From an uncultured bacterium (GTDB taxonomy: Bacteria > Chlamydiota > Chlamydiia > Chlamydiales > JAJFMA01), in assembly GCA_964436955.1 (NCBI GenBank), contig CAYTFC010000002.1:583-64582 (forward strand): a DNA stretch of 64,000 nt. Direction: 5' to 3'. A model generated the notes under the pieces. That model made no database searches, was not told the DNA's origin, and worked only from the letters and a program-made list of their open reading frames with translations. The stretch's first letter is position 1. Each line of letters begins with the position of its first letter. Positions 1 through 34,832 of the stretch are shown here, piece by piece. Made by a program: the position numbers and the translations under genes.

Positions 1-393
1 ATTTTTGAAGCTTGTGGACGAAAATTATCGAGCGATAATTATATCCCCTGCAAAAGTGAGTTTAATGGTTTCACTGGCTATATTGATGGAGTACGTCCAG
101 CTGATTTACCTCAATCTCTTGGATGGTCCATAGATCAATGGAATCGCCCATTTTTAGCCTTCAAATATCTTTGTAACAACACATTTGAAGGAGCCGCCGC
201 TCTATTTCAGCGCTATGAAACAAATGAATACACGATGGCATTGGGAGGTCATCATCAGGCCTCTCAGCCGCTTTGTAATTTTTTACCATTCCAATTGGAG
301 TCAACCTTAGAAGCTGTGCGCACTATGTGTACAAGAGGTTACCATATTATCCCGTATTTTCGAGGTAATTGGAACGTCACCTTGTCTGATTGA
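1..393 (+). CDS. C-terminal fragment of an unidentified protein (5' end lies outside the window)
   Basis: Frame 1 is open from the window edge to TGA at 391-393 (...GYHIIPYFRGNWNVTLSD*). It is absent from the ORF track because it has no start. No family recognised. Confidence 0.4.
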   Translation: MFEACGRKLSSDNYIPCKSEFNGFTGYIDGVRPADLPQSLGWSIDQWNRPFLAFKYLCNNTFEGAAALFQRYETNEYTMALGGHHQASQPLCNFLPFQLESTLEAVRTMCTRGYHIIPYFRGNWNVTLSD

Positions 394-400
394 TTTAATG

Positions 401-430
401 CCCAACTTGTCCCTTTAATGGCAAGTTGGG
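401..430 (+). terminator. Stem-loop just after the truncated ORF
   Basis: cccaacttg (401-409) is the reverse complement of caagttggg (422-430), with a 12-nt loop. No clear U-tract follows. Confidence 0.3.
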
Positions 431-569
431 GTTGAATGAAACAGCTAGCGCGACACTACATGGTATAGATAACCTGTAAAGCGGCTTTACATCCATATAT
501 CCCTGTAAAAAATCCGCTTGGTTTGATAGAGTCATTTTTTTTGTTGCCCCTTTTGCATGAGGAGTACTT

Positions 570-2402
570 GTGTCAGAGGAACTAGATGATGCCTATCGCT
601 CTTTGTATGACGTAACGATTCCAGACTTGGATTACTATTTACGTCAGATTGATTGTCGCGATGGATGTCCTGTCAATACCGACGGTCGTGGCTACATGTT
701 GGCTATCCATGCTGGCAATCTTTTGGAAGGATACAAGATTGCGCGTGGACCCAATCCGTTTGCATCCGTCTGTGGGATGATTTGCGGAGCTCCTTGCGAA
801 ATCACATGTCGTCGCGATCGCGTTGACAAAACGCTTACTATTCGAGCACAGAAGCGTTACTTGGATGAGTGGTTTGGGCATGATCAAAACGCACTCAATC
901 GTTCCTTAGAATTTAGTTACGCACGCGGATCGATTAATTCTACACCTAATGGCTTAAAAGTGGCGTGTGTGGGAGCTGGCGTAGCTTCATTGACATGTGC
1001 TCATGATCTTCTTCGTTTGGGTTATGCAGTTGACGTTTTTGAATCAATGGCCCTGCCAGGCGGCATGTTAACGTACGGTGTTCCTAGCTACCGACTGAAG
1101 AATAGACTCGCTGTAGCAGAATGCCGAGCTATCGAGCATTTAGGCGCCAATGTCTATTACAATACTAAGATCGGTCGTGACATCACGATGAACCAGCTGG
1201 AAGAAAAGTATGATGCCATCTTCATTGGCATAGGCTTATGGAAATCTCGGGACTTGCCAATCCCAGGAGCTGAAGGTCCTGATGTCATTCGCGGGGTGGA
1301 GTATCTGCGGGTTTTGTGTGCGGACGATCGATGGCCTATCGGGAAGCGGATTGTTGTTGTGGGCGGAGGTAACGTTGCGTTTGACGTAGCACGTTCCTCT
1401 GTGCGTAATGGTGCGGACAGTGTGACAATGGTATGCTTAGAATCGCGTGATGAACAGACAGCCGATGAATTTGAGATCGAAGATGGCATGGAAGAAGGTA
1501 TTACGATTGTCAATCGAGTAGGGCCGATATCAGTAGAACGTGACACGGAAGGAAGAGTCAGCGGCCTGCGCGTTCAACCTATTTATAGCCTATTTGATAG
1601 TCAAGGCCGCTTTGCACCGAAATTTATTTCAGATTCACAGTATGTCATTCCATGCGATACTTTGGCCCTGGCTATTGGACAAGCCATGGATCCCGCATTT
1701 TTAGATGGCTGGGATAAGCGTAATCAACTGGCACTAGACAGAGGCCTTATTAAAACAGAGCGAGGCACAGGACGCACTAGCGTACCTAAAGTGTATTCTG
1801 GTGGTGATGTGGGATTTGGCCCTGCTCTTTTTATTACGGCCATTCGCCATGGGCAAGAAGCGGCTAGAAGCATTGATAGCGACTTGCGTGGCACGACCCC
1901 CTACCGCGAGTATACCGCTGAATTTACAGAGATTGTACCGATGCGTGACAAGTCCTACTTACGTACTCGTTGGGCCCTACCAACTAGCCAACCTGTGCAT
2001 AGCCGCACAACGAATTTAGAATATGTTGAGAACAACTATACCGATGCTGCAGTCCATCAGCAGGCTAACCGTTGTTTGCAATGTCATGTTAGCCCTGTTT
2101 TCGATGGCAGCCTGTGCATTAAGTGCAATGGATGCGTCGATGTTTGCCCGACCAACTGTCTAAAGCAAGTGCATGTAAGCCAGCTTAACCTCGATGTCGG
2201 TGATGGCAGTTTGCGTCGTGCCGTCGATAACTTTTTTGGTGTCGATACGATGGAAATGACTCAGGAAGAACTCCATTTAATGGGCTCCGCCATGTTAAAA
2301 GATGAAGACTTGTGCATCCGCTGTGGATTGTGTGCAGAAAAGTGTCCCACCCAGGCAGTGACAATGGATGCTATGAACTATTCCTTTAGATGGATAGGAT
2401 AG
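570..2402 (+). CDS. NAD(P)H-dependent FAD oxidoreductase, glutamate synthase small-subunit (GltD)-like, with a C-terminal 2x[4Fe-4S] ferredoxin domain
   Basis: N-terminal Cys cluster region (CPVNTDGRGY...CGMICGAPCEITC). Two dinucleotide-binding motifs (VACVGAGVASL; VVVGGGNVAFD). Two CxxCxxCxxxCP motifs (CIKCNGCVDVCP, CIRCGLCAEKCP). GTG start at 570 preceded by GAGGAG. Confidence 0.8.
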   Translation: MSEELDDAYRSLYDVTIPDLDYYLRQIDCRDGCPVNTDGRGYMLAIHAGNLLEGYKIARGPNPFASVCGMICGAPCEITCRRDRVDKTLTIRAQKRYLDEWFGHDQNALNRSLEFSYARGSINSTPNGLKVACVGAGVASLTCAHDLLRLGYAVDVFESMALPGGMLTYGVPSYRLKNRLAVAECRAIEHLGANVYYNTKIGRDITMNQLEEKYDAIFIGIGLWKSRDLPIPGAEGPDVIRGVEYLRVLCADDRWPIGKRIVVVGGGNVAFDVARSSVRNGADSVTMVCLESRDEQTADEFEIEDGMEEGITIVNRVGPISVERDTEGRVSGLRVQPIYSLFDSQGRFAPKFISDSQYVIPCDTLALAIGQAMDPAFLDGWDKRNQLALDRGLIKTERGTGRTSVPKVYSGGDVGFGPALFITAIRHGQEAARSIDSDLRGTTPYREYTAEFTEIVPMRDKSYLRTRWALPTSQPVHSRTTNLEYVENNYTDAAVHQQANRCLQCHVSPVFDGSLCIKCNGCVDVCPTNCLKQVHVSQLNLDVGDGSLRRAVDNFFGVDTMEMTQEELHLMGSAMLKDEDLCIRCGLCAEKCPTQAVTMDAMNYSFRWIG

Positions 2403-2403
2403 C

Positions 2404-2544
2404 ATGTTGATAGACCTGTTTTTGACCCTTGCAGCCGGTTGTGCAGCCTTACTCGTGTTTTTGTTTTATTGGCGCAAGGGACAGTTTGACGACGCCGAGG
2501 ACATCAAATACCAGATGTTTCGTGATGAAAATGAAGAACCTTAG
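2404..2544 (+). CDS. ccoS: CcoS/FixS-like cbb3 oxidase maturation peptide (46 aa, not in the ORF track)
   Basis: My translation is MLIDLFLTLAAGCAALLVFLFYWRKGQFDDAEDIKYQMFRDENEEP*. It has one TM helix followed by W-R-K-G-Q-F-D-D and an acidic tail, as I recall for CcoS/FixS. The ATG lies 1 nt after the upstream stop, with AGGA 4 nt upstream. Confidence 0.6.
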   Translation: MLIDLFLTLAAGCAALLVFLFYWRKGQFDDAEDIKYQMFRDENEEP

Positions 2545-2607
2545 CAAGAGACAGCATTTGTCAATAAAACCGTTTATGCATATATCATTCAGAAAAAAAC
2601 GGAACTT

Positions 2608-3120
2608 GTGATGCCTAAGCTACGCAACTCATTAAATGTGGATCCAGACGATAAGGATCCCCGTATCTCCCGTCGATCCTTCCTTGCCCTGCTAGGGGTG
2701 GGAGTAGGAATTGGCGCGCTAAACCTAATTGGAGCGTCAGTATTGGGCTTTTTATATCCTAATGCCATGAAGATTCCCCCATCGGTGTTTTCGTTAGGAC
2801 GACCCGATGACGTGCTTGCGACTCAAGGAAAGGTGTTCGTTCCCAAACAAAAGGTATTTATCGATTCTGAAAATGGAAAAGTAAGAGTGCAAACCGCTGT
2901 TTGCACACATTTAGGCTGCACCGTTCACATGGTAGAAACAGGATATCAGTGTCCTTGCCATGGATCCACTTATGACCAGCTTGGCCACAATACGGGTGGT
3001 CCGGCGCCGAGCCCATTAGTGTTTTATAAATGCTTTTTGGGTGCCTCAGGAGAAATTATGTGCGACAAATCTCAGACAACCTTGGATGACAAGGAAGCCT
3101 GGTTTTCGCCTAAAGTATAA
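2608..3120 (+). CDS. Rieske [2Fe-2S] subunit with a twin-arginine signal
   Basis: Tat motif SRRSFLALLG. Rieske boxes CTHLGC and CPCHGS. The start is GTG 2608 or ATG 2611. Confidence 0.9.
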   Translation: MMPKLRNSLNVDPDDKDPRISRRSFLALLGVGVGIGALNLIGASVLGFLYPNAMKIPPSVFSLGRPDDVLATQGKVFVPKQKVFIDSENGKVRVQTAVCTHLGCTVHMVETGYQCPCHGSTYDQLGHNTGGPAPSPLVFYKCFLGASGEIMCDKSQTTLDDKEAWFSPKV

Positions 3121-3132
3121 GAGCTTGTAACT

Positions 3133-4458
3133 ATGGCAGTTTTCCAGGGATCACCGCGTGAATCATGGCTGGAGTACCTCGCTAACCTCCCGCGCATGTT
3201 CATACGCTCGATCTTTCGACATAACTATCCTAATAATGATGTCGATCGCTCTGAAATCGTATTTAAGAACTTCTTTCTGCACTTCCATCCAGTCAAGTGT
3301 CACAAAAATAGTACCGATCCCTTTTACACATTAGGTCTTGGGGCTATCTCAACCAGCCTATTTTTGATACTGACTTGGACCGGTGTTGTTCTGATGTTCT
3401 TCTACATACCCACTGTGGACCGTGCTTATGACATCATGAAGGATTGGCAGGATACGACACCATTTGCGCAGATGTACCGCAACATGCATCGTTGGGCAGC
3501 GCATTTGATGGTGATGTTTGTGATGCTGCACATGTCGCGGGTCTTTTATACCGGCTCCTATAAAGGAGAACGCCGCTTTAATTGGGTGATCGGCGTCATT
3601 CTGATGGTACTGACGCTCCTGCTATCATTCACTGGATATCTTCTACCTTGGGACCAGTTAGCCTTTTGGGCTATTACGGTAGGATCCGAAATTGCAGGGT
3701 ATGCCCCCAATCTGCCTGGCTTTCAGTATAATGTGAACCGTGTCATGCTACTAGCCTCCACTAGCGTAGGTCAGGATGCTCTCATTCGCTTTTATGTGCT
3801 GCATGTGGTGGTACTGCCATTGGTGGCCGGCACCTTGATTGGTGTACACTTTTGGCGCATTCGCAAGGATGGAGGACTATCGCGCCCTCCCGACCGTGTC
3901 AGACCCGATCCATTAAGAGTCGTCCAACGATCCGATAGCAAAGAGGTATTTGCTCCGGGAGTGAAACGAACCTATGGTTTGATGGAGCTTGTACGAGGCA
4001 CCTGTCCCACCGTAGATAAGGGGCCATACAACTTTGTCTTTAGCTGGCCGAACCTTCTGCGTGCGGAGATGGTGGCCTTCTTACTTACTTTGGTGCTAAC
4101 GTTGGCGCTTTCTTTCATTGACGCGCCATTGGAGGAACCTGCTAACCCCGCCGCTCCTCCGAACCCTTCCAAAGCTCCCTGGTACTTTCTTGGGCTGCAG
4201 GAAATGGTAGCTTACAGCGCCTTCTGGGGCGGCGTTGGTATTCCTACGCTCATGGTGCTGGGTTTGATGGCAGTACCCTATCTCGACCGTAATCCTCATG
4301 GGACGGGCTATTGGTTCCATCGCAGCCGCTATTTGGCGATCTTTTTGTGGACACTCTTTATGACCAGTCAAGCTCTACTCATCGTCATTGGAACGTTTTT
4401 TAGAGGAGCTAACTGGGGATGGATTTGGCCGTGGACAGAAACTTTCTCGCGGCATTAA
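3133..4458 (+). CDS. Cytochrome b (b6 and subunit-IV-like parts in one 441-aa polypeptide)
   Basis: Polytopic membrane protein with cytochrome b signatures (RNMHRWAAHLMVMFVMLHMSRVF; LPWDQLAFWAITVG; FYVLHVVVLP). Lies directly after the Rieske gene. Confidence 0.9.
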   Translation: MAVFQGSPRESWLEYLANLPRMFIRSIFRHNYPNNDVDRSEIVFKNFFLHFHPVKCHKNSTDPFYTLGLGAISTSLFLILTWTGVVLMFFYIPTVDRAYDIMKDWQDTTPFAQMYRNMHRWAAHLMVMFVMLHMSRVFYTGSYKGERRFNWVIGVILMVLTLLLSFTGYLLPWDQLAFWAITVGSEIAGYAPNLPGFQYNVNRVMLLASTSVGQDALIRFYVLHVVVLPLVAGTLIGVHFWRIRKDGGLSRPPDRVRPDPLRVVQRSDSKEVFAPGVKRTYGLMELVRGTCPTVDKGPYNFVFSWPNLLRAEMVAFLLTLVLTLALSFIDAPLEEPANPAAPPNPSKAPWYFLGLQEMVAYSAFWGGVGIPTLMVLGLMAVPYLDRNPHGTGYWFHRSRYLAIFLWTLFMTSQALLIVIGTFFRGANWGWIWPWTETFSRH

Positions 4459-4481
4459 AGCGGTATTAAAAGGGAGAAATC

Positions 4482-7400
4482 GTGCGATCGGAACTCTATC
4501 AAATATCCTTGATCCTACTCCTAGTGGTATCCGCCGCACTCTTTGGCGTGTTCTTGGCGCGCGAACTCTTTCCGCAATACAGAGTTTTTCAGCAGGATTA
4601 TATTGCGTTAGAGGAATTTCGCTCATCATTAACGCATGAGCCAATGGCGCCTTTTGACATTGGAATTAGACAGATAGTTCTCACACAAAGTAATAACGGC
4701 CCTGAAATTGTTGATCGCTGCACAAGTTGCCACGTGGCGCTTCAACTTAGCCACTTTTCCCCCACTAAACCTGCGCAGGATGTCAATGGCGAAGCCTTGC
4801 TTGATGAACAGGGATATCCCGTTTCAGTTCCGAACGAATCCTATGTGTGGAAGCAGTTAGATGAACGTATAGCTGAACTCAAATCGCAGGATAAGCTATC
4901 TGAAGCCGAGCAGTTGGAGTCCCTGAAGAAGGCATACATCGGCGGGGCCGAGGTGGATATGACCAAAGCCTTGGCTATGCATCCCCTCATAGGTAAGGAA
5001 ACCCGCCCCTTTCAGTTTCATCCCATTGAAGAATATGGCTGCACCGTATGTCATAATGGCAACGGTAGAGCCCTTACCATTGAAAAGGCTCATGGGCCTG
5101 TATTTGATGGCCAATACCCGACTTCGTTTGAAGGGCCAGTACCGCAATTTTTAGAGATTGACGAACAGAACGATCCCTCCTTTTCAAGAGTGTTTAATCA
5201 TAAGCCAGGTCACGAACTTTTGTTCCAGACAACACCCATCTTCGTGGGAGAGCTAATCCAAGCTAACTGTGTACAATGTCATTTATCATCCACTTCTCAG
5301 CTTAATAGCGTGGTGACGACCGTATCTGAGCTTAAGGGACAGTCCGCACAGCAAACAAAGGACGTTCAAAAAGCCTATGAAGACGAAAAGAAGGCGTTGG
5401 CAACCCTGCTTATCCTTCGTTCCGATATTCTAAAAAATGGATTTGGGAATACGCTAAAAAGACTAATAGATAACGAGACGAACTATCACCTCACACAGTT
5501 AGAGCGCAATGCAGCGGCCGCGCAAGTGATCTATCTGACCCAGGCAGTTGCAAATCTATCCGAAAGTGACCCCACAGGACAACAGCAAGCCGCTGTAGCC
5601 AGAATTCAAAGGGATATCGTTATTTCGTTAGGCACAGAAGATCTTGCTTCGGCCTTAGAAAAAGAACTACAGGGCAAAGATAGCAACTCATCCGCGCTAT
5701 TCGATACATTTGTTAAAACACATAGTCAATCGAAAGGACAACTCTTTATCAAAGCAGCAGCAGTCGATAGACAGCAGATATCTCTAAAGCATATCGACAA
5801 AGCGGAAAGCTCTTTGAGCAATTCTCTCGGTCAAGAGCAAGTTAAGAAAGCGGCGGCCACGGATATTGATCGCATGATCAAATGCTACTTACAAGGTGAG
5901 CAGCTCTATATTTCTCAAGCATGCTACGCATGCCATCGAATCGCTGGTTTCGCTCGTGGAGGTGTTGGCCCAGAACTTACCAATGAAGGTTTCAAGTATC
6001 CGTGGTTCATTAAGCAGTCAGTCGTATGGCCTCAGGCAGATCTACCCAGCTCTACAATGCCAAACTATCGTTTGGATCACCAAGAACTGGAAGCTCTAAC
6101 CTGCTATATGTTGGCTCAAAAAGGCCGTCCCAACGCGGTTTCTCAGGTGGACTACAATACAACCATCAAACAATGGGAAGAAGGTAAGAAGAAGCCTTGG
6201 GAAGCTCCGGTTCCACCATCCAAGATACATGATTTACATTACGGAATGACAGTATTTGCAACTGAAGGATGCGCAGCTTGTCACCGCTTAAAGGGATTTC
6301 AATCCAATGTTGGCTTCGCGGTAGAGAAAGACAAGGTACCTACTTTTGATGAGATGTATCGTGAACGCAACTGGTTTACAAGTTTGTTCCCAGAAGACCT
6401 AATGGGAAGCCAAATAGTGAAAGTGATCGAAGAAAATGCAGCGGAACTGGACAAGCGTATTGTAGATCATGTGCGACATGATTCCATTATTGAAGAAATT
6501 CAAAGGGACCACCCACAAATAATCGAAGCTCTCTATTCAGGCTTTAGATACGCCTCACGCGCTAAGCCAGACAGCCAATGGAAGGAACGTGTTGAGCGAG
6601 TCTTAAAGACCTATATTCAGGAATATGGTCTAGGACGGCTTGTAGGACCCAGGCCCAATTGGTCGGGCATCTATCGCTCTGATGAATGGCTGATTGCGCA
6701 TTTTTACAATCCCGGCGCCCATGTGGCACGCTCCATTATGCCGGTGTTTCCGTTTGATGAGACCAAGTTCTATGCTCTTACTTATATGCTAGACATTCTG
6801 GCCCCATTAAACGCTGCTAATGTACGTGAAATTTGGGATAACCGCGGGTTTAACCCTGAACTAGCGTTTCATATATATTGTGCTCAATGTCATGGGGACT
6901 TCAGGCAAGGCGATGGACCGGTGGCCCAATGGCTATACCCTATCCCTAAGAACCTACGTAACGGCTCATTCCTAAACAACCTAACCAGAGAGCGAGTTGC
7001 GGAGTCTATTATACATGGCGTTAAGGGAACTCCAATGCCGCCTTGGGGAGAAATAGCCAGAGACAAGCCATTCCCCATAAAAATTCCAGTATTAACCGAA
7101 GAGGAAGCGCATCAACTCACCAATTGGCTGTTTCTGAGTCTCCCAGGTGGTGATGTAGATGAACCCGATAACATGAAGTGGAAGTATCAACCTGAAGACG
7201 TGATCAGGGAACTCCACGGTGAAGGCGATCAACTTCATAGCAATCTATCGTCGGTGTCTCACTTATTGGCATCTAACAAGCCAATAGCAATAACATCACC
7301 TTCTCAGCAGGAAGTCGATGACATTTTTGACGAACGTAATTATCCCATACCTGGAGTTAAGCGTAAGGCTTACTACATAAAAGAGAAGTACTACACACCG

Positions 7401-8438
7401 TTGAATATAGCCCAAGGCGAGAGTGTTTTCATCGAAAACTGTGCTATCTGTCATGGTAAAGAAGGAGCCGGTAATGGCTTAAGAGCCGGTAGTATGACGG
7501 AATCAAAGCCTCGTATGCTTACAAATCTGGATTGGATAGCAACTCGTGATGACCTGCGCTTGCTTCAATCCATCAAATTTGGCGTTCTTGGTACCTCCAT
7601 GACTCCCTGGGGCGATTTTACAAGCACGCTGCAAAGATTGCAATTGGTCATGTACATTCGCAGCCTGAGCCGAGAGCATGCACTGCGTGAACATCTTTCG
7701 GACATCATCTATCAATCCTTCGATCGCGCCTTGGAAACTGTGCGGCAGTCTCAAATAGAAGAGGACGTTAAGTTTCAAGAACTGGATAAAGCGTACAATA
7801 CAGCAAAGTCTTTTAAGATAGATCAGGAAGCCAATCTAGCGATAAACAAAACGGCCGTACCAGCACTTGTCGATGCCTATCAAAAAGAACTGTCGCTTGG
7901 GGAACAACTTAAGAAACAAGAAACTATTGATAATGCAATCTCTGACTTAATTGCTGAAATAAAGAAGCAACGCGATATTTTTACTTCACTGGGAAGTACA
8001 GCTCTAGCATCTTTAGGTGAAAGTGATGTTTCAGACGGGATTTTAGACTTAATAGGTCTAAATGCTGTCCATTATGAGTACCATGATGGAAAGCTCACCT
8101 TGGATAATTATTCCGCTGATCCAGCCGTCATTGTTAACACCGGTAAGCAAGTACTTGCTTTGCTGGAAAAAGACATCCCCTCACTAGAAAAAGAACTGAA
8201 AGGCATGGACGCACAAGCGGCTTCCACCGAAGCACGTGAGAGAATTGCTGAACTAAACCAACGTGTGAAGGGGCTTAATCAAATTAAGGTCCTAGTACTA
8301 ACAACACTAGAGGACTCCGCACGCTCAAAACAGAGACAGGAAAGCCTTGTGGAACGCATTCATGGTCTCAAAGAAGCCTTAAGGCAAAGCGAACCGGCTA
8401 CTCAAGAAAAAGCGAAACAAAGAAATACCAATGAATGA
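4482..8438 (+). CDS. Membrane-anchored heptahaem c-type cytochrome (1318 aa) with a CcoP-like di-haem module and a coiled-coil tail
   Basis: N-terminal TM helix. Seven CxxCH motifs: CTSCH, CTVCH, CVQCH, CYACH, CAACH, CAQCH, CAICH. The last two sit in class-I cytochrome c contexts (CAQCHGDFRQGDGP...MPPWG; CAICHGKEGAGNG...MTPWG). GTG start preceded by AAAGGGAG. Confidence 0.85.
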   Translation: MRSELYQISLILLLVVSAALFGVFLARELFPQYRVFQQDYIALEEFRSSLTHEPMAPFDIGIRQIVLTQSNNGPEIVDRCTSCHVALQLSHFSPTKPAQDVNGEALLDEQGYPVSVPNESYVWKQLDERIAELKSQDKLSEAEQLESLKKAYIGGAEVDMTKALAMHPLIGKETRPFQFHPIEEYGCTVCHNGNGRALTIEKAHGPVFDGQYPTSFEGPVPQFLEIDEQNDPSFSRVFNHKPGHELLFQTTPIFVGELIQANCVQCHLSSTSQLNSVVTTVSELKGQSAQQTKDVQKAYEDEKKALATLLILRSDILKNGFGNTLKRLIDNETNYHLTQLERNAAAAQVIYLTQAVANLSESDPTGQQQAAVARIQRDIVISLGTEDLASALEKELQGKDSNSSALFDTFVKTHSQSKGQLFIKAAAVDRQQISLKHIDKAESSLSNSLGQEQVKKAAATDIDRMIKCYLQGEQLYISQACYACHRIAGFARGGVGPELTNEGFKYPWFIKQSVVWPQADLPSSTMPNYRLDHQELEALTCYMLAQKGRPNAVSQVDYNTTIKQWEEGKKKPWEAPVPPSKIHDLHYGMTVFATEGCAACHRLKGFQSNVGFAVEKDKVPTFDEMYRERNWFTSLFPEDLMGSQIVKVIEENAAELDKRIVDHVRHDSIIEEIQRDHPQIIEALYSGFRYASRAKPDSQWKERVERVLKTYIQEYGLGRLVGPRPNWSGIYRSDEWLIAHFYNPGAHVARSIMPVFPFDETKFYALTYMLDILAPLNAANVREIWDNRGFNPELAFHIYCAQCHGDFRQGDGPVAQWLYPIPKNLRNGSFLNNLTRERVAESIIHGVKGTPMPPWGEIARDKPFPIKIPVLTEEEAHQLTNWLFLSLPGGDVDEPDNMKWKYQPEDVIRELHGEGDQLHSNLSSVSHLLASNKPIAITSPSQQEVDDIFDERNYPIPGVKRKAYYIKEKYYTPLNIAQGESVFIENCAICHGKEGAGNGLRAGSMTESKPRMLTNLDWIATRDDLRLLQSIKFGVLGTSMTPWGDFTSTLQRLQLVMYIRSLSREHALREHLSDIIYQSFDRALETVRQSQIEEDVKFQELDKAYNTAKSFKIDQEANLAINKTAVPALVDAYQKELSLGEQLKKQETIDNAISDLIAEIKKQRDIFTSLGSTALASLGESDVSDGILDLIGLNAVHYEYHDGKLTLDNYSADPAVIVNTGKQVLALLEKDIPSLEKELKGMDAQAASTEARERIAELNQRVKGLNQIKVLVLTTLEDSARSKQRQESLVERIHGLKEALRQSEPATQEKAKQRNTNE

Positions 8439-9897
8439 TACAGCTACAGTCCCCTCAACGCCACAATTTGAAGATCTACCCGTCAAGCTGTTTGTGTATC
8501 CCGCCATTGTTTTTATGGTCATAGGGATGTTTTTTGGCGTCTTTATTTCCTTTAATGGAATGGTGATGCCTGATTATTGGGCTGGTGAATACATTCACTT
8601 TGGGCGCATGCGTCCGGTACATGTTGGCCATGTTCTATTCTTATGGTTGTTGCCTGCTAATTTTGGATTGATTTTCTATATTACTCAAAGATTGTGCGGT
8701 GTGACGCTATGGAGTCGCTCGCTGGGAATATGGTCTGCAGCGCTTTACTGGCTTGCGCTTGTTCCAGGAACCTATTCATTTCCTTGGGGAACCAACTTTG
8801 GGTGGGAATATGCCGAGTTTCCCATGTGGTTGGGTTGGCTTCCGGTAAAATTCATGCTCTTATTTGCTTGGATACTGATCACCATTAACATTTACATGAC
8901 CATAGCCAACCGCAAGTATGATAAGCTCTATGTTTCCCTCTGGTATATCCTAGCCACGTTACTGTGGGGAGGGATTAGCTACTTCGCAGGAAACTGGGTA
9001 ATCAACATGGTACCCCAGGGGATCTCTCGAGTGAATATGAGTTTTTTCTATGTTCATAATTTGGTGGGGTTAATTTTTACACCCATGGGCTTAGCCATTG
9101 CTTATTATTTCTTACCCAAAATGGCAAAGACGCCTATCTATAGCCATAAACTATCCCTCATTGGTTTTTGGTCCATTGCATTTGTGTATGCATGGGTAGG
9201 ATCACACCATATTATTCACGGACCCATGTCACAGTGGATTCAAACAGTAGCGATCATTTTTTCCGTTTGGCTGTTTATTCCCGTATGGTCAGCGGTTACA
9301 AACCTATTCGGTACACTTAAAGGCAATTGGCATAAGTATAATGAGAATGCGGCCATCCGATTTATCATAATGGGAACGCTTTTTTACTTGATGGTGAGTA
9401 CGCAAGGAACATTCATGGCTGTGCGTAACGTCAATGAAATCACATCCAAGACAGATTGGATCATTGGACACGCTCATATGTCGCTCTATGGTACGTTCAC
9501 CTTTTTCGCAATAGCGGGCATTTATGGGGCCTTGCCGGCCCTTTCCGGAAACCCCCTCTATTCAAAGCGCATGGCTGATTGGCATTTTACGCTAAACATG
9601 CTAGGAGCTTCCCTCATGTTCATTGCACTGCACGTTGGTGGCTTTTTCCAAGGTCTTCAATGGGCTACATGGGCTGATGGCGATAGCTACCGTGTATTTC
9701 AAAATAACCTCAGTAAGCTCCAATTTTTGGACACTATTGCCAGCATGCATTACTTTTGGCTGACACGTACAATTTCCGGTCTGTTTATTTTTGCCGGAAA
9801 CTGCATCTTTGTCGTGAATGTCTTTAATACCATTTTACTCAAGCCACGGCCTCGTCCAGTCCAGGCCCAAACCGTAGTTGTAGGAACGCTAGCATAA
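8431..9897 (+). CDS. ccoN: cbb3-type (C-family) haem-copper oxidase subunit I
   Basis: A 488-aa polytopic protein with about 12 TM helices and conserved His patches (WVGSHHIIHGPM; IGHAHMSLYG). The next gene is FixO-like. Its start overlaps the upstream stop (ATGAATGA). Confidence 0.85.
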   Translation: MNDTATVPSTPQFEDLPVKLFVYPAIVFMVIGMFFGVFISFNGMVMPDYWAGEYIHFGRMRPVHVGHVLFLWLLPANFGLIFYITQRLCGVTLWSRSLGIWSAALYWLALVPGTYSFPWGTNFGWEYAEFPMWLGWLPVKFMLLFAWILITINIYMTIANRKYDKLYVSLWYILATLLWGGISYFAGNWVINMVPQGISRVNMSFFYVHNLVGLIFTPMGLAIAYYFLPKMAKTPIYSHKLSLIGFWSIAFVYAWVGSHHIIHGPMSQWIQTVAIIFSVWLFIPVWSAVTNLFGTLKGNWHKYNENAAIRFIIMGTLFYLMVSTQGTFMAVRNVNEITSKTDWIIGHAHMSLYGTFTFFAIAGIYGALPALSGNPLYSKRMADWHFTLNMLGASLMFIALHVGGFFQGLQWATWADGDSYRVFQNNLSKLQFLDTIASMHYFWLTRTISGLFIFAGNCIFVVNVFNTILLKPRPRPVQAQTVVVGTLA

Positions 9898-9899
9898 TT

Positions 9900-11162
9900 A
9901 TGACCGATCCTCATATCACTCCAAAAATCGAAAAATCCGCTATCTACACGATGATCGGAATTGCTTTGCTATTTCTATCATCCATTTTAGCTACCGTTTT
10001 GGCTCCAAATCTCATTGACCCCAGCTGGGTGGAACCATCCAGTCACTTTCAGGTACAAATGTATGAAGTGGCTGATGCTCATCTGTACGCAGCACGTGCT
10101 CTGCCGGGATCGCCTACACTCGATTATGTGCACCATTTAAAGCAGGGATATTCCCTGATGGCGTTTCAAGAAACGGAACAACTGCGCATCCTCGCAGATC
10201 CTACCTTAGATCGTTATGTAACTCGCTTTGGTGAAAAGGATCTTAAGCTGACTACAAAAGTAATGCTGCTACGTAAACCCACCGGAGACTCCTTTGATAA
10301 AGCCGAAAAGCTTCGTGTAGAGGCCCAAAAGCTGTGGGAAGCCAAGAATCCAAATTGGAAGGATCGGGGACTAATACGCATGGATTATGGTGTGCTGGAG
10401 CTCTATGACCCAAAAATAGACGAAGCCTTTGCGCAAGCACGCACGGAGGGAACTTCAGAACACTATGTCGATAAAAATTTTACCATCTTGGATGGCCCCA
10501 AGCAAAAATATCATAACGATACAGGCGTCATATATGTTCTCAATCCCGAGGAATATCGCTTCCGTCACGTAGGCATTGGAAGCATTCAAGGGTATCGCTA
10601 CGACCCCAACGGCCAGTCTGTCAAAGATATTGCGCAATTAACTGGACCTGAATTGGGTTTTATATCTCGTAAAGATCTCATAGCTATGGGTGAGCACATC
10701 TTTGCGATAGAAGGATGCTGGTATTGTCATACAGATCAAAGCCGCACACTGATTCAAGACTGTGTACTCAATGGTGGAGCAGCCTATGCCGCCCCACCCT
10801 CATCAGGTAACGAGTATATCTTTCAGAAAATCACTTTTCCAGGCACGCGCCGTATCGGCCCAGACCTGGCTAGAGTGGGAGTTAAGCGGCCCAGTCGAGA
10901 TTGGCATAAAGGGCACTTCTGGCAGCCTCGTACGCCAAGTCCGGGAAGCATTATGCCATCCTTTAGGCATTTCTTTGATGATGACCCTCGCGGACAATCC
11001 TCTAGCCAAATTGGAATCCCAAACTATCGCTTTGAGGCCATGTACCAGTATTTGATGACCAAGGGAACGCGCATTACCGCGCCAACGCAAGCCTGGTGGT
11101 TAGGTAAGGACCCCTTGCATACGACCGAGATTATTGAAGGACTGAGAACCGTAGAGCCTTAG
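9900..11162 (+). CDS. ccoO: cbb3 oxidase monohaem subunit II (CcoO/FixO-like) with a long insertion between the TM anchor and the haem domain
   Basis: TM anchor at aa 15-35. The haem motif CWYCH appears only near aa 273. A FixO-like block follows (GPDLARVGVKRPSRDWHKGHFWQPRTPSPGSIMPSF). Confidence 0.8.
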   Translation: MTDPHITPKIEKSAIYTMIGIALLFLSSILATVLAPNLIDPSWVEPSSHFQVQMYEVADAHLYAARALPGSPTLDYVHHLKQGYSLMAFQETEQLRILADPTLDRYVTRFGEKDLKLTTKVMLLRKPTGDSFDKAEKLRVEAQKLWEAKNPNWKDRGLIRMDYGVLELYDPKIDEAFAQARTEGTSEHYVDKNFTILDGPKQKYHNDTGVIYVLNPEEYRFRHVGIGSIQGYRYDPNGQSVKDIAQLTGPELGFISRKDLIAMGEHIFAIEGCWYCHTDQSRTLIQDCVLNGGAAYAAPPSSGNEYIFQKITFPGTRRIGPDLARVGVKRPSRDWHKGHFWQPRTPSPGSIMPSFRHFFDDDPRGQSSSQIGIPNYRFEAMYQYLMTKGTRITAPTQAWWLGKDPLHTTEIIEGLRTVEP

Positions 11163-11165
11163 TAT

Positions 11166-11360
11166 ATGCCTGAATACGATTCCATTGGAATTTACGGAAA
11201 TATCTTGCACCACAGCCTAGTCATGTGTTTTATGGGCAGTGCATTGTTAGTATTTATCTATTGCTGGCGCAAAGGGCGCTTAGATATGGATGACGACGCG
11301 GCCAATCAAATGATGCAGATGAGCGACGATAACCCCCTTGAGGAGAGAAAAGATGGTTGA
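11166..11360 (+). CDS. Small single-TM peptide of the oxidase operon (CcoQ/CcoS-like)
   Basis: 64 aa with one TM helix (LVMCFMGSALLVFIYCW) followed by RKGRLDMDDD and an acidic tail. This resembles the tail of the 2404-2544 peptide. Starts 3 nt after the ccoO stop. Confidence 0.5.
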   Translation: MPEYDSIGIYGNILHHSLVMCFMGSALLVFIYCWRKGRLDMDDDAANQMMQMSDDNPLEERKDG

Positions 11361-11643
11361 TAAGCCCCCAAAAAATAGAGAGACTTCGGACATTCGCGAT
11401 TTCGAAGACTTTGTGGGAGCTCCCGGCGAGGCACATGCGCCAACACCCCTCTTTCTTAATCTCATGTATGTCATCGTTATAGTCATCGGAATATTGATGT
11501 TTGTTTTCTTTTGGAATGGCAGTGATGGCTTGGATGAGGCTTTTGACCGCGGTGCATGGACACAGCTTCAGCGAGCCGCTAGAACTACATATCCTTGGCA
11601 TGATAACGTTGTAACTCATCCAGTCGAGCATAATAGCAAATAG
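11353..11643 (+). CDS. Small single-TM protein, last gene of the oxidase operon (no haem motif)
   Basis: ATG 11353 overlaps the upstream stop (ATGGTTGA), with AGGAGAG 5-6 nt upstream. One TM helix (LFLNLMYVIVIVIGILMFVFFW). The ORF-track TTG start at 11338 is less likely. Confidence 0.5.
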   Translation: MVDKPPKNRETSDIRDFEDFVGAPGEAHAPTPLFLNLMYVIVIVIGILMFVFFWNGSDGLDEAFDRGAWTQLQRAARTTYPWHDNVVTHPVEHNSK

Positions 11644-11653
11644 AGGCCGCCAT

Positions 11654-11709
11654 AAGCCTGGTGACACGTTGCTATGGCGGTGCCTGTCTATAGGCATCGA
11701 ATTTGAAAG
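11654..11709. repeat. Intergenic hairpin repeat, copy A (family also at 22105-22163, partially at 59691-59710 and 33411-33430)
   Basis: Shares these blocks with copy B: aagcct, tatgg, cggtgcctgtc, aggca, cgaatttgaa. Lies just downstream of the operon's last stop. Confidence 0.6.
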
Positions 11710-12230
11710 ACATTACACAATCCCACTCCTACGCAAAGGATCATCCATAAAGATCAGCGCACCGTCCAGTATGTGCGCACACTCAAAACTGTATATTATT
11801 AATCTATTTTCATAAAAAAACTCGCTTTCAGTGTAGCCTAGAAGAGACTTTCTAGATTGTAGCTTACGGAAATTTGCACTAAAATAAGCGGTGATGTATA
11901 ACTCAAAATCAGCATTACATAAAAACGTAATGCATTGTCAAATCTTAGACTTTAATGTTTTTGCTTGAGTCAAAAATTTAAAAAGGAGAAGGGAAGTGAC
12001 AATACATCTCTACAAGCTCAGAACAAGCTATCACGTTATCCGTCAAGCCATCCATAATTTAGTCCCTATCTGACTCAAAACAGTTTTTGAGCCAAAGCTA
12101 AGGTGTTTAATTGCCAAAGCTGAGAAGATACGTTAATGGGAAAAATGGCCCTACTTTCTAAAAAAAAAACAATTTTTGAATTAAATTGATCTGAAAACTT
12201 GATTATGCCTTGCGAACCAAATGAGGACCT

Positions 12231-12668
12231 ATGACGATTACTGAATTATGTTTAATTATTATCGCTGCGACATTAGTTGTTTTCGCTCTGTTTGTGATTA
12301 TACTGGCTTTTCAATTAAAGAAAATGCTCAAGACGGTGCAATTTGATATTAATAGATTTACTAACGATGGGTGCCACGTACTTGCTAAAATGGAGAATTT
12401 TCTTCAAAACGACGCCCATACAGTCTCTCAAAACACAACGGAACTACTCAGCAATTTAAACTCCTTATCAGCTGGGGTGAATGATAAAGTGAATTCCTTA
12501 AATTTCCTTTTTCATCCCCTGGATTTTTTAAATTCCCAGTTCAGCCCGAGTTCCTCTTCTTCCCAGGAACAGCAAAATTCAGCGTCCGTGGCCTTTCCAA
12601 AAATTTTGAAATGGATAGTGTCTAGCGTTCTTCTATTTAGGACTACAAAGGAGTTCATCAAAAAATGA
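12231..12668 (+). CDS. DUF948-like membrane-anchored protein
   Basis: N-terminal TM helix, then a helical region and a Ser-rich tail. Architecture and neighbourhood (followed by YtxH-like genes) resemble DUF948/YtxH stress-protein clusters. Confidence 0.5.
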   Translation: MTITELCLIIIAATLVVFALFVIILAFQLKKMLKTVQFDINRFTNDGCHVLAKMENFLQNDAHTVSQNTTELLSNLNSLSAGVNDKVNSLNFLFHPLDFLNSQFSPSSSSSQEQQNSASVAFPKILKWIVSSVLLFRTTKEFIKK

Positions 12669-12952
12669 AACACGACAACACAGAAACAAAAAAAGTAATA
12701 TTGAGTTTACTACTAGGCGGGGTTATCGGGTTAGGTATTGCCTACTCCATGCGTAGCCATAAGCCACCTGTCATGAAAAAAATTGGTAGAACGGTTTCTG
12801 AACTAGGCGATATGTTGCAACATTATGACACTCCTAGCCAAGTGATGGAGTCTATCGAACATAAACTGCCAAATAGTGCAGCTGTTTTTAATAGTTTATC
12901 CGACTGGATAAATACTGGATTCGAACTTTGGAAAACACTAAAAAAAGGATAA
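12665..12952 (+). CDS. Small membrane-anchored protein, YtxH-like N-terminus
   Basis: ATGA overlap with the upstream stop. Gly-rich TM segment LLLGGVIGLGIAYSM. Confidence 0.5.
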   Translation: MKHDNTETKKVILSLLLGGVIGLGIAYSMRSHKPPVMKKIGRTVSELGDMLQHYDTPSQVMESIEHKLPNSAAVFNSLSDWINTGFELWKTLKKG

Positions 12953-12956
12953 AATT

Positions 12957-13271
12957 ATGAACGACCATTGCAGACGATCAGATTTTTTCTGGGGAGCGTT
13001 AACTGGTGGAACAATTGCCCTTTTGACGGTGCTGCTATGCACCACTAAAAAAGGAAAGCAGTTACAGAATCAAGTTAAAGAGATTTATCATGATGTTGAA
13101 GACACGGTAAAAGACGCCTTTGGTGAGTTAGAGGAAGGAGTTCAAAATGCTGCCTCTGAAGCTAAAGAGTTCGGTGAAAAAGTAGGGAAAAAGGTGAAAA
13201 AAGGTGCTTCGGACGCAGTAGACGCAGCTGAGCATCTCGCAGACAAAGCATCCAATGCCACTAAGTATTAA
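12957..13271 (+). CDS. YtxH-like protein
   Basis: FFWGALTGGTIALLTVLL...KKGKQLQNQVKE, followed by a Lys/Glu/Ala-rich helical tail typical of the YtxH family. Confidence 0.6.
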   Translation: MNDHCRRSDFFWGALTGGTIALLTVLLCTTKKGKQLQNQVKEIYHDVEDTVKDAFGELEEGVQNAASEAKEFGEKVGKKVKKGASDAVDAAEHLADKASNATKY

Positions 13272-13302
13272 TTCTGATTAAATATTATCGCGCCTGAAAA
13301 GG

Positions 13303-13323
13303 ACCCAGGGCAACGCCCTGGGT
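13303..13323 (+). terminator. Hairpin after the YtxH-like gene
   Basis: acccagggc / gccctgggt forms a 9-bp stem with a 3-nt loop. No U-tract follows. Confidence 0.4.
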
Positions 13324-13347
13324 AATGTCGAGCTGTCGCGTTTATAT

Positions 13348-13377
13348 GTTGTAGCGCCGCTTCGCCAAAGCGGGCAT
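13348..13377. repeat. Short hairpin repeat, copy D1 (inverted copy at 59731-59759)
   Basis: gttgtagcgccgcttcgccaaagcgggcat here versus the reverse complement of 59731-59759, gttgtagcgccgcttcgtcgaagcggcat. There is a 17-nt exact block plus an extension, and it contains a ccgcttcg/cgaagcgg-type hairpin. Confidence 0.55.
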
Positions 13378-13414
13378 AAGCAAAAGTCCTAGGACCCTGA
13401 TTGCTACCAAAACT

Positions 13415-13529
13415 TCATCTAGCGCTCATAGCGATATATCAGATGCAGCAGTGTGCCTCGACGGCAAGAGTGATCTCTTGCCGAGAGGTACAATGTTGCA
13501 GATGATGCATCGCTATGAGCGCTAGATGA
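13415..13529. repeat. 115-nt palindromic element (21-bp perfect terminal inverted repeats plus an apical 9-bp hairpin)
   Basis: tcatctagcgctcatagcgat (13415-13435) is the exact reverse complement of 13509-13529. At the centre, cggcaagag-tgat-ctcttgccg forms the apical hairpin. Confidence 0.7.
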
Positions 13530-34681: not shown

Positions 34682-34832
34682 AAAACACCTCAAATTAACC
34701 TGACTTTAACTATATTATATATTAATATTAAAAATTTAGTTAATAAATAAGGTTAAGCAAGATTGTTTTTTATTTATTATGAATTGTGCGATCTAAATCA
34801 GTTGCAAAATTAAATCAACCAGATTAGACTTC

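Follow-up and report, generated by a model that had tools for sequence, protein, structure and literature searches.

A conserved operon of Chlamydiota predicted to link a flavoprotein and a Rieske/cytochrome b core through a heptahaem cytochrome c to a cbb3-type oxidase with a haem-less CcoP anchor

A stretch of 64,000 nucleotides (nt) from an environmental chlamydia, an uncultured bacterium of the Chlamydiota (assembly GCA_964436955.1, contig CAYTFC010000002.1, positions 583 to 64,582 of the forward strand; hereafter the window) carries a run of nine genes at positions 570-11643. Judged from its sequence, this run appears to be a real and conserved operon, made of recognisable parts and mechanistically suggestive. 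It combines genes for a flavoprotein, a Rieske protein, a cytochrome b, a heptahaem cytochrome c and a cbb3-type oxidase, whose CcoP subunit seems to be reduced to its membrane anchor. On balance, these proteins probably form a wired line from quinol to O2 in which the flavoprotein is a genuine component. The gene arrangements indicate that the components have been inherited together, as one block, in Chlamydiota and, in a compact form, on contigs assigned to Bryobacteraceae (Acidobacteriota), labelled as Verrucomicrobiae or of 'Deltaproteobacteria' type. The features of the locus are the following.

570 to 2402, + strand: flavoprotein open reading frame (ORF) of the NfnB/GltD type, predicted to be cytoplasmic (Pfam Fer4_20, Pyr_redox_2 and Fer4)
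2404 to 2544, + strand: FixS/CcoS-like peptide of 46 amino acids (aa) with a single transmembrane helix (Pfam FixS)
2608 to 3120, + strand: Rieske [2Fe-2S] protein (Pfam Rieske)
3133 to 4458, + strand: cytochrome b, a b6-like part with four helices fused to a subunit-IV-like part (Pfam, NCBIfam, PDB)
4482 to 8438, + strand: heptahaem cytochrome c, membrane-anchored, 1318 aa (CXXCH count, Pfam, homologues)
8431 to 9897, + strand: CcoN, catalytic subunit of a C-family (cbb3-type) haem-copper oxidase (COX1, TIGR00780, PDB)
9900 to 11162, + strand: CcoO, monohaem subunit II, 420 aa (FixO, PDB alignments to CcoO)
11166 to 11360, + strand: tentatively, a second FixS/FixQ-like peptide with a single transmembrane helix, 64 aa, in the ccoQ position (family scan)
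11338 or 11353 to 11643, + strand: haem-less homologue of the CcoP anchor, 96 aa from the ATG at 11353, in the ccoP position (FixP_N at the family level)
11646 to 11695, + strand: two adjoining, weakly predicted hairpins directly past the last stop codon (RNA fold)

A sequence-only reading of this DNA had described nine co-directional ORFs running head to tail with minimal gaps, and an ORF check of the + strand of the window reproduced all of their coordinates and every junction listed. A single nucleotide separates the stop codon of the flavoprotein gene (2402) from the ATG of the FixS-like gene (2404). The spacing between the Rieske and cytochrome b genes is 12 nt (3120/3133) and that between the cytochrome b and heptahaem genes 23 nt (4458/4482), and the heptahaem and ccoN genes overlap by ATGAATGA at 8431-8438. 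Further downstream, ccoN and ccoO are 2 nt apart (9897/9900), ccoO and the next peptide gene are 3 nt apart (11162/11166), and the last two ORFs overlap by ATGGTTGA at 11353-11360, where an SD-like (Shine-Dalgarno-like) GAGGAG precedes the ATG at 11353. The sole larger gap in the gene run is one of 63 nt before the Rieske gene (2544 to 2608). The gene identities given in that reading (flavoprotein, CcoS-like peptide, Rieske protein, cytochrome b, heptahaem cytochrome c, CcoN, CcoO and small peptides) are also in agreement with Pfam and NCBIfam. The hairpins at 11646-11695 fold with -23.2 kcal/mol (z = -1.6 versus shuffled sequences) and lack a clear U-tract; they may, weakly, indicate the 3' end of the transcript.

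The conservation of this arrangement was assessed among GTDB species representatives. A relative was found in 294 species, and the 80 top-ranking ones are loci of chlamydial type. Synteny was counted on loci with enough flanking DNA, and 60-75 loci were informative per junction. Of 76 chlamydial loci that could be assessed, 70 have ccoN 3' of the heptahaem gene, and all 68 with sufficient upstream DNA have the flavoprotein gene 5' of the cluster. Median junction gaps range from -16 to 15 nt across the 80 species-level loci. Gene order and tight junctions recur across these 80 loci and are more than a matter of chance. The cultured species Waddlia chondrophila (CP001928.1) possesses the identical nine-gene operon with overlapping junctions. 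The sequence-only reading had pointed to gene neighbourhoods across genomes of the Planctomycetes-Verrucomicrobia-Chlamydiae (PVC) group as a check; in this comparison the block was conserved in Chlamydiota and was also found beyond PVC bacteria. A chlamydia-like contig (L087, 6345-10381) has two genes, encoding 1024 and 321 aa, in place of a single one for the heptahaem protein, directly before ccoN. Locus L064 appears degraded.

Outside the Chlamydiota, an exhaustive search of cluster representatives retrieved compact relatives of the heptahaem protein with 545-790 aa, which match in 5-8 stretches. A second search that started from a compact relative reached Planctomycetota, Acidobacteriota (Bryobacteraceae, Solibacter, Holophaga), Myxococcaceae/'Deltaproteobacteria' and Verrucomicrobiae. 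The compact clusters on Bryobacteraceae, Verrucomicrobiae-labelled and 'Deltaproteobacteria' contigs encode a heptahaem protein of 560-610 aa, a CcoO of ~180 aa and the same flavoprotein. In L084/L085 and L091 the order is flavoprotein, FixS, Rieske, cytochrome b (with subunit IV), heptahaem protein (569-572 aa), CcoN, CcoO (181 aa), small peptides, CcoG, DsbD_2 and CcoI; L086 has the order of L084 up to CcoO (179 aa), where the contig ends, and a heptahaem protein of 611 aa. In L088 (Bryobacteraceae) and L090 a FixS-like peptide, Rieske, cytochrome b, heptahaem protein, CcoN, CcoO and two peptides are followed by the flavoprotein, DsbD_2, CcoG and CcoI. The flavoprotein is located inside the cluster in L083, L084, L086, L088, L090 and L091. 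The stop codon of the heptahaem gene overlaps the start of ccoN in the cbb3-linked non-chlamydial loci, except in L091, which has a 2-nt gap. The non-chlamydial clusters (L084 13889-18402; L088 15238-19818; L090; L091) run on into ccoG, DsbD_2 and the Cu-ATPase gene ccoI, whereas the surroundings of the operon in the window and in Waddlia contain none of these assembly genes. L081 (Tectomicrobia) harbors Rieske, b6, subunit IV, octahaem and cytochrome c genes without a flavoprotein. In L089 (Planctomycetota, 5513-10704) the heptahaem gene, CcoN, CcoO, CcoG and CcoI lie beside a phage-type integrase and no Pfam match to a Rieske protein or cytochrome b was found upstream; this layout may reflect rearrangement or module mobility.

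The Rieske protein has an N-terminal transmembrane/Tat-like RRSF motif and contains the boxes CTHLGC and CPCHGSTY, the latter with the Ser/Tyr pair of the high-potential signature. The residues of both boxes are invariant in 70 homologues and CPCHGSxY is present in every flavoprotein-linked Rieske member. The Ser/Tyr pair goes with potentials of 300-350 mV in Rieske proteins (PMC3509893), and Kuste4569 of Kuenenia stuttgartiensis, which has this pair, was measured at +303 mV (PMC12954380). The best PDB matches of the cytochrome b are cytochromes b6 (E 2.5e-36). It harbors four His ligands of haem b (H119, H133, H224 and H239), and its Qo motif is APWY, not PEWY, in all members. The features expected of a Rieske/cytochrome b complex, namely the CxHxGC and CxCHGS boxes, the four haem His and the Qo xxWY motif, are present. 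Those of a cytochrome b6f-type complex are not: the window encodes b6 and subunit IV as one fusion (L091 and L081 have split versions), Thr66 (3328-3330) occupies the position of the b6 haem-c_n Cys and there is no cytochrome f. Thr is found at this position in all flavoprotein-linked cytochromes b, and the cytochrome b of L081, which has no flavoprotein, keeps the Cys. Neither a cytochrome c1 nor a cytochrome f gene was detected by Pfam among the operon genes. The conserved n-side residues H50, H52 and H57 were considered as ligands of an extra haem, as in an AlphaFold 3 model of Kuenenia; the HP motif is general to cytochromes b and permits no conclusion. The FixS/CcoS-like peptide (2404-2544) scores 27.2 bits against FixS (cut-off 23.1), falls below the cut-off of TIGR00847 and contains the motif W-R-K-G-Q-F-D-D-x-E-D-x-K-Y-Q-M-F-R-D-E. 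Its gene is positioned immediately 5' of the Rieske gene in Chlamydiae and in non-chlamydial loci.

The heptahaem protein has one N-terminal transmembrane helix and seven CXXCH motifs at residues 80, 187, 263, 481, 597, 800 and 987, all of which are kept in 76 of 80 homologues. The named homologues all belong to Chlamydiota (Waddlia, Protochlamydia, Parachlamydia), the best being 64% identical. Alignment of the chlamydial and compact heptahaem families with hhalign (probability 100, E 1.5e-83, 553 columns) maps the haems 1:1 (window/compact: 80/78, 187/113, 263/150, 481/177, 597/286, 800/368 and 987/481). This indicates that the chlamydial protein of 1318 aa is a compact heptahaem cytochrome enlarged by insertions and a tail. 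The helical insertions are located at residues about 285-460 and elsewhere, and the C-terminal helical tail (about 1070-1318, ~250 aa) gave no significant Pfam match. Haems 1-3 may receive their distal ligands from three additional His, and haems 4-7 a ligand each from four Met-Pro motifs; these His and Met-Pro motifs are invariant in both families. Thus, three haems are probably bis-His and four His/Met ligated.

The sequence-only reading had also placed CcoP-like haem domains inside the heptahaem protein. In a model of the compact protein the class-I domains are well predicted (predicted local distance difference test, pLDDT, 81; predicted template modelling score, pTM, 0.74), and a Foldseek search with this model returned the Kuenenia dihaem cytochrome Kustc0457 (6h5l_B) as best match (template modelling score, TM, 0.70; 32% identity). 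ActE and actinobacterial QcrC ranked lower in this search, CcoO was 38th and CcoP fell outside the top 50. A sequence profile of the last two haem domains also matched 6h5l_B best in the PDB (E 2.3e-12), while CcoP matched with E 4e-6 to 4e-4 over only ~25 residues around CXXCH. The match to TIGR00782 reached 46.7 bits (cut-off 180). Since profile and Foldseek both rank Kustc0457 first, the CcoP-like label is justified only in the generic sense of a PF13442 class-I fold, and a specific likeness to CcoP was not found. The domain of haem 5 holds a stretch matching Pfam FixO, which is CcoO-like, and a similar GP...MP pattern follows haem 4 in the family alignments.

CcoN was identified by COX1 (262 bits) and by TIGR00780 ccoN as best model (273 bits), and its PDB matches are all CcoN (3mk7_A, E 6.5e-60). 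Its six His ligands (two for haem b, one for haem b3 and three for CuB) are invariant in 64-65 of 65 homologues. The cross-link Tyr Y253 on helix VII, at the position of Y251 of Pseudomonas stutzeri, is present in all 65 homologues and in five non-chlamydial members. CcoO matches FixO with 71.5 bits versus 29.6 and comprises an N-terminal transmembrane anchor and a canonical haem domain with CWYCH at 273, GPDLARVG and SIMP; its alignment to 3mk7_B and 8smr_F spans CXXCH, GPDLARVG and MP. A periplasmic insertion of ~210 aa (residues ~46-260, window 10035-10679) separates the anchor from the haem domain; it is kept in chlamydial homologues and absent from the compact systems. In an AlphaFold2 model this insertion is beta-rich (pLDDT 85-96), whereas the haem domain is poorly predicted (pLDDT about 27-45). 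The insertion has no Pfam match, and no fold relative was detected in the PDB by Foldseek (best E 1.9).

The two small reading frames that follow ccoO were assigned at the level of their families. The peptide encoded at 11166-11360 is conserved in 60 loci and matches the FixS of L084 in blastp (4e-4); among 28 family members, three match FixS (best 5e-5) and two FixQ. It is tentatively, and weakly, suggested to be a second FixS/FixQ-like peptide. The ORF at 11353-11643 shares 45-52% identity with the closest members of its family and 21-52% across the alignment. PF14715 FixP_N matches 15 of 34 family members (best 1.8e-5) and is the sole recurrent Pfam family. When the family profile was searched against the PDB, CcoP chains took the first five places (E 0.003-0.13), aligned at their anchor, comprising GIEEYDNPLPRWW and the transmembrane helix. 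Thus, the CcoP anchor is recognisable at the family level, but the dihaem domain is not, as neither the ORF nor its homologues contain CXXCH. The other ORFs with CXXCH in the 64 kb are the flavoprotein, where the motif lies amid cytoplasmic Fe-S cysteines, and an ORF of 111 aa on the opposite strand. The absence of a separate dihaem CcoP from the operon had been noted from the sequence, and a search of the window and of the related loci examined (the contexts of L081, L083-L086, L088-L091 and Waddlia) found none. However, the order ccoN-ccoO-(Q-like)-(P anchor) mirrors ccoNOQP and the last ORF is FixP_N-like, so that CcoP appears truncated rather than absent.

The flavoprotein (570-2402) consists of an N-terminal Fe-S domain, an FAD- (flavin adenine dinucleotide-) and NAD(P)-binding (nicotinamide adenine dinucleotide (phosphate)) domain and a C-terminal 2x[4Fe-4S] ferredoxin domain with a CxxC pair; neither a transmembrane helix nor a signal peptide was found in it. 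It scores 398 bits against NF009410, which is under the cut-off of that subfamily. Its best PDB matches are NfnABC, Stn and NfnB proteins (9bov/9bp5, E 2.3e-79; 8oh5; 9n5u; 4ylf_B; 5jca_L), with E values from 1e-61 to 2e-79 against 4ylf_B, 9n5u, 8oh5 and 9bov, and GltD ranks behind the NfnB-type subunits. The NAD(P)- and FAD-binding motifs are conserved, and 16 Cys are kept in chlamydial and non-chlamydial members, a capacity for approximately four Fe-S clusters. The protein is predicted to be NfnB-like. An NfnA-like partner gene (related to ferredoxin-NADP reductase, FNR, and with [2Fe-2S]) is absent from the operon according to Pfam, so that the operon does not encode an NfnAB pair. The ORF at 14656-15801 with FAD_binding_1/NAD_binding_1 domains was rejected as an NfnA partner, being on the opposite strand, 3 kb off and not conserved with the cluster.

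In the proposed wired line, quinol would be oxidised at the Qo site of the Rieske/cytochrome b core. The high-potential electron would pass from the Rieske cluster through haems 1 to 7 of the heptahaem protein to the haem of CcoO and on via haem b to haem b3-CuB and O2. On such a route the heptahaem protein would do the jobs of cytochrome c1 or f, of a soluble cytochrome c and of the haem domains of CcoP. A heptahaem gene that abuts or overlaps ccoN is to be expected if its product is the electron donor to CcoO. The flavoprotein would most probably dock at the cytoplasmic face of cytochrome b, where its Fe-S chain would link the b haems with NAD(P)(H). The hard-wired bc:cbb3 supercomplex proposed in the sequence-only reading is thus supported in part; the proteins may plausibly assemble into a stable supercomplex, and the genes would be co-transcribed.

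Several observations weigh against a line of this kind. Six loci (L010, L026, L031, L064, L076 and L078) carry the order flavoprotein, FixS, Rieske, cytochrome b and heptahaem protein without ccoNO in at least 3 kb downstream, which suggests that the half comprising the bc core and the heptahaem protein can work with other acceptors. L083 has a flavoprotein, Rieske, cytochrome b, an octahaem protein and a small cytochrome c without an oxidase; together, these loci indicate that the two halves are separable modules. In Chlamydiae, no other junction is as loose as that of the heptahaem gene with ccoN, which exceeds 300 nt in 9 of 64 loci. A promoter and terminator consensus scan of positions 1-13500 was uninformative, with sites fewer than or equal to those in shuffled sequences and no internal terminator signal. 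The search for a dihaem CcoP was limited to the 64-kb window, and a canonical ccoP elsewhere in the genome is possible. The small peptides of the window itself (11166-11360 and 11353-11643) had no significant Pfam match individually. Both large oxidase subunits miss the cut-offs of their NCBIfam models: CcoN lies below the 583 bits required by TIGR00780, and CcoO reaches 62.5 of 200.65 bits in TIGR00781 because of its insertion and sequence divergence. Finally, Q325 of CcoN (9403-9405) occupies the position of Glu323 of P. stutzeri and is Gln in 65 chlamydial and five non-chlamydial members. In P. stutzeri CcoN, Glu323 is the hydrogen-bond partner of the proximal His of haem b3.

The loci that keep the bc-multihaem part without ccoNO, and likewise L089 with its heptahaem-ccoNO genes but no Rieske/cytochrome b nearby, would also be explained if the genes were co-transcribed but their products formed two independent complexes and no stable supercomplex. 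In this case the heptahaem protein would be the c subunit of the Rieske/cytochrome b complex and a membrane-tethered carrier like cytochrome c_y, colliding with a separate CcoNO and other acceptors. The variability of the heptahaem-ccoN junction, the most variable of all, is consistent with such an arrangement, as are the known bc1-cbb3 supercomplexes (6xkw and 8smr are among the PDB matches), in which association is partial and occurs via tethered cytochromes. However, the window, Waddlia and contigs assigned to other phyla have a heptahaem stop codon that overlaps the start of ccoN, and the chlamydia-specific enlargements of the heptahaem protein and of CcoO occur together. Moreover, the haem domains of CcoP are missing in every locus examined, which implies that some fixed donor to CcoO is needed. 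Two independent complexes are considered rather unlikely.

With regard to the direction of electron flow through the flavoprotein, an O2-driven, quinol-bifurcating NAD(P)+ reductase can be put forward tentatively, operating in the direction proposed for the anammox complexes. While the high-potential electron would proceed via the heptahaem protein and cbb3 to O2, the low-potential electron would leave cytochrome b instead of being recycled to Qn and would travel along the Fe-S chain of the flavoprotein to FAD, yielding NAD(P)H on the cytoplasmic side. In its favor are the kinship with NfnB and the occurrence of a high-potential Rieske signature in presumed menaquinone users. The opposite direction, which is compatible with the wired line, would make the flavoprotein an NAD(P)H dehydrogenase on the n-side that reduces quinone at Qn or the b haems, resulting in a chain from NAD(P)H to O2. 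Electron transfer from NAD(P)H to menaquinone is thermodynamically downhill according to textbook values, and the hosts include heterotrophs and an intracellular parasite, for which reverse electron flow is not obviously needed; thermodynamic ease and host physiology thus favor NAD(P)H oxidation. The conserved NAD(P) and FAD motifs and the chain of four probable Fe-S sites would suit this role, and the association of FNR with b6f (cited in PMC5600118) offers a precedent. On the other hand, the Ser/Tyr signature of the Rieske protein implies a very low-potential b_P haem in a menaquinone organism, the very argument by which NAD(P)+ reduction was proposed for the homologues of Kuenenia (PMC12954380). 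The nearest solved relatives of the flavoprotein are bifurcating NfnB-type subunits, and NADH oxidation in Chlamydiae is already served by Nqr and Nuo (PMC9816063). An NAD(P)H dehydrogenase is rated rather unlikely, only slightly less probable than NAD(P)+ reduction.

The flavoprotein could also be a co-transcribed passenger. It might then act as a soluble redox enzyme or serve in assembly or protection, without being an electron-transfer subunit of the membrane complex. Its lack of a transmembrane segment and its score below the NF009410 cut-off would fit a passenger, and its place varies: it heads the operon in Chlamydiae, L084 and L091 and follows the small peptides beside DsbD_2/ccoG in L088 and L090. 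Nevertheless, rearrangement has not removed it from the clusters, either in Chlamydiota or on the contigs placed in Acidobacteriota, Verrucomicrobiae and 'Deltaproteobacteria', and its gene is tightly joined to the FixS-like gene in the window. In Kuenenia the homologous subunit co-occurs with Rieske/cytochrome b and is described as part of the complex (PMC12954380), and a passenger role is quite improbable. That the haem-copper enzyme is a nitric oxide (NO) reductase or another divergent C-family/NOR-type enzyme and not an O2 reductase, as its TIGR00780 score and the Gln near the proximal His of haem b3 could suggest, is very improbable, since the three CuB His, the cross-link Tyr position and both sets of haem ligands are invariant, no NorB match to 8431-9897 appeared in the PDB search at E<=1e-3, and ccoG and the Cu-ATPase ccoI for CuB assembly follow the cluster in non-chlamydial loci. 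A NorB-type identity of 8431-9897, which the sequence-only reading had named among the findings that would overturn it, was rejected on the basis of the NCBIfam model, the PDB matches and the ligand residues, all of the CcoN type.

Among known systems, the anammox Rieske/cytochrome b complexes of Kuenenia stuttgartiensis (Kuste4569-4574 and Kustd1480-1485) resemble the operon in gene content, since an NfnB-like flavoprotein, a Rieske protein, a b6-like cytochrome b and a multihaem cytochrome c are encoded together. This comparison rests on published descriptions of the Kuenenia proteins. Shared are the b6-like cytochrome b with a subunit-IV-like part, the multihaem cytochrome c in place of f/c1, the Ser(/Tyr) Rieske signature and the cytoplasmic NfnB-like subunit with FAD and several Fe-S clusters. 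The closest structural homologue reported for Kuste4570 is 9bp5 (NfnABC; PMC12954380), which is also the best solved homologue of the chlamydial flavoprotein and thereby ties the operon to the anammox complexes. Baymann et al. placed the cytochromes b of Waddlia and Parachlamydia in group A2 with two Kuenenia complexes (PMC3509893). The operon differs in its high-potential partner, a cbb3 O2 reductase instead of the HAO-like octahaem protein of Kuenenia, in the fusion of cytochrome b and subunit IV and in the Thr at the haem-c_n Cys position, whereas the Kuenenia models include haem c_N. In addition, its heptahaem subunit is of another architecture, and FixS-like peptides and the CcoP anchor are present. 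In Kuenenia, NAD(P)+ reduction coupled to quinol oxidation is itself only a proposal (PMC12954380).

In comparison with the canonical CcoNOQP of Pseudomonas stutzeri (3MK7/5DJQ), the operon shares the CcoN ligands and Tyr, the CXXCH/GPDLARVG/Met-Pro set of CcoO, the order N, O, small peptide and P (anchor) and a maturation peptide of the FixS type. It differs in a CcoP without both haem domains, the Gln at Glu323, the CcoO domain of ~210 aa in Chlamydiae, the missed NCBIfam equivalog cut-offs and the location of the electron donor directly upstream, within the bc operon. The bc1-cbb3 supercomplexes (Rhodobacter capsulatus CIII2CIV 6XKW/6XKX; Pseudomonas aeruginosa 8SMR/8SNH; 9G83) likewise lead from quinol via Rieske/cytochrome b to cbb3 in one membrane. 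In them, however, CcoNOQP and a bc1 complex with c1 are encoded separately, and CcoP forms the bridge together with cytochromes that are tethered or soluble, whereas here a single operon encodes a b6-type core and an extra flavoprotein, without c1 or CcoP haems. The actinobacterial obligate bcc-aa3 supercomplex (QcrCAB-CtaCDEF; 6ADQ, 6HWH, 7QHM) is similar in being a hard-wired quinol-to-O2 line with a multi-haem c bridge and no soluble cytochrome c, and QcrC is among the Foldseek and hidden Markov model matches of the heptahaem protein. It is distinguished by an A-family aa3 oxidase with CuA, a dihaem cytochrome cc, the lack of a flavoprotein and another cytochrome b lineage. The bifurcating transhydrogenases NfnAB, NfnABC and Stn have the NfnB-type Fe-S, FAD and NAD(P) architecture in common with the flavoprotein, which in contrast has no NfnA or HydB-type partner, carries an additional C-terminal 2x[4Fe-4S] domain and has a membrane bc complex as genomic partner.

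Chlamydial pangenome papers give CcoN/O and PetBD as presences at the level of KEGG Orthology (KO) only (PMC9816063, PMC5826181, PMC8242063, PMC5451489). In the searchable literature, the flavoprotein-bc-heptahaem-cbb3 operon, the CcoP-anchor remnant and the CcoO insertion are undescribed and components alone are mentioned. Two papers, by Ducluzeau et al. (2008) and ten Brink et al. (2013), may treat ccoP-less cbb3 clusters and multiple Rieske/cytochrome b complexes and may already mention the arrangement. If the proposed line is correct, one operon specifies the whole path from quinol to O2, inclusive of a dedicated cytochrome c wire and a port for NAD(P). This would define the make-up of what is described as 'complex III plus cbb3' in environmental chlamydiae. 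It would also represent one way for a cbb3 oxidase to drop the haem domains of CcoP yet keep its anchor, which bears on the evolution of cbb3 subunits. The operon would, moreover, encode an O2-linked relative of the puzzling anammox NAD(P)-oxidoreductase Rieske/cytochrome b complexes. As the cultured Waddlia chondrophila carries the operon, the bifurcation hypothesis becomes testable outside anammox bacteria, and cultured relatives of the metagenome-assembled genomes with the compact form could be screened. Bifurcation, if true, would be an aerobic and widely distributed counterpart of a mechanism that was proposed, and never demonstrated, for the anammox complexes.

Outside the operon, a non-coding gap of ~590 nt (11644-12230) is followed by a trio of small membrane/YtxH/DUF948 genes (12231-13271). 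Rfam and tRNA scans of the window, including this gap, gave no match. Two large ORFs on the - strand have no Pfam match (22255-24663, 802 aa, and 59868-60872, 334 aa), and two adjoining paralogous ORFs of ~415 aa with Hydrolase_4/alpha-beta hydrolase domains lie at 33446-36074 (- strand), where the local G+C content falls to 0.41. A gene resembling that of the major outer membrane protein (MOMP) is present elsewhere in the window. The 699-aa ORF at 36229-38328 combines Radical_SAM and BATS domains (BioB-like) with a class I/II aminotransferase domain (BioF-like) and is followed by BioD-like and BioA-like genes; it appears to encode a BioB-BioF fusion.

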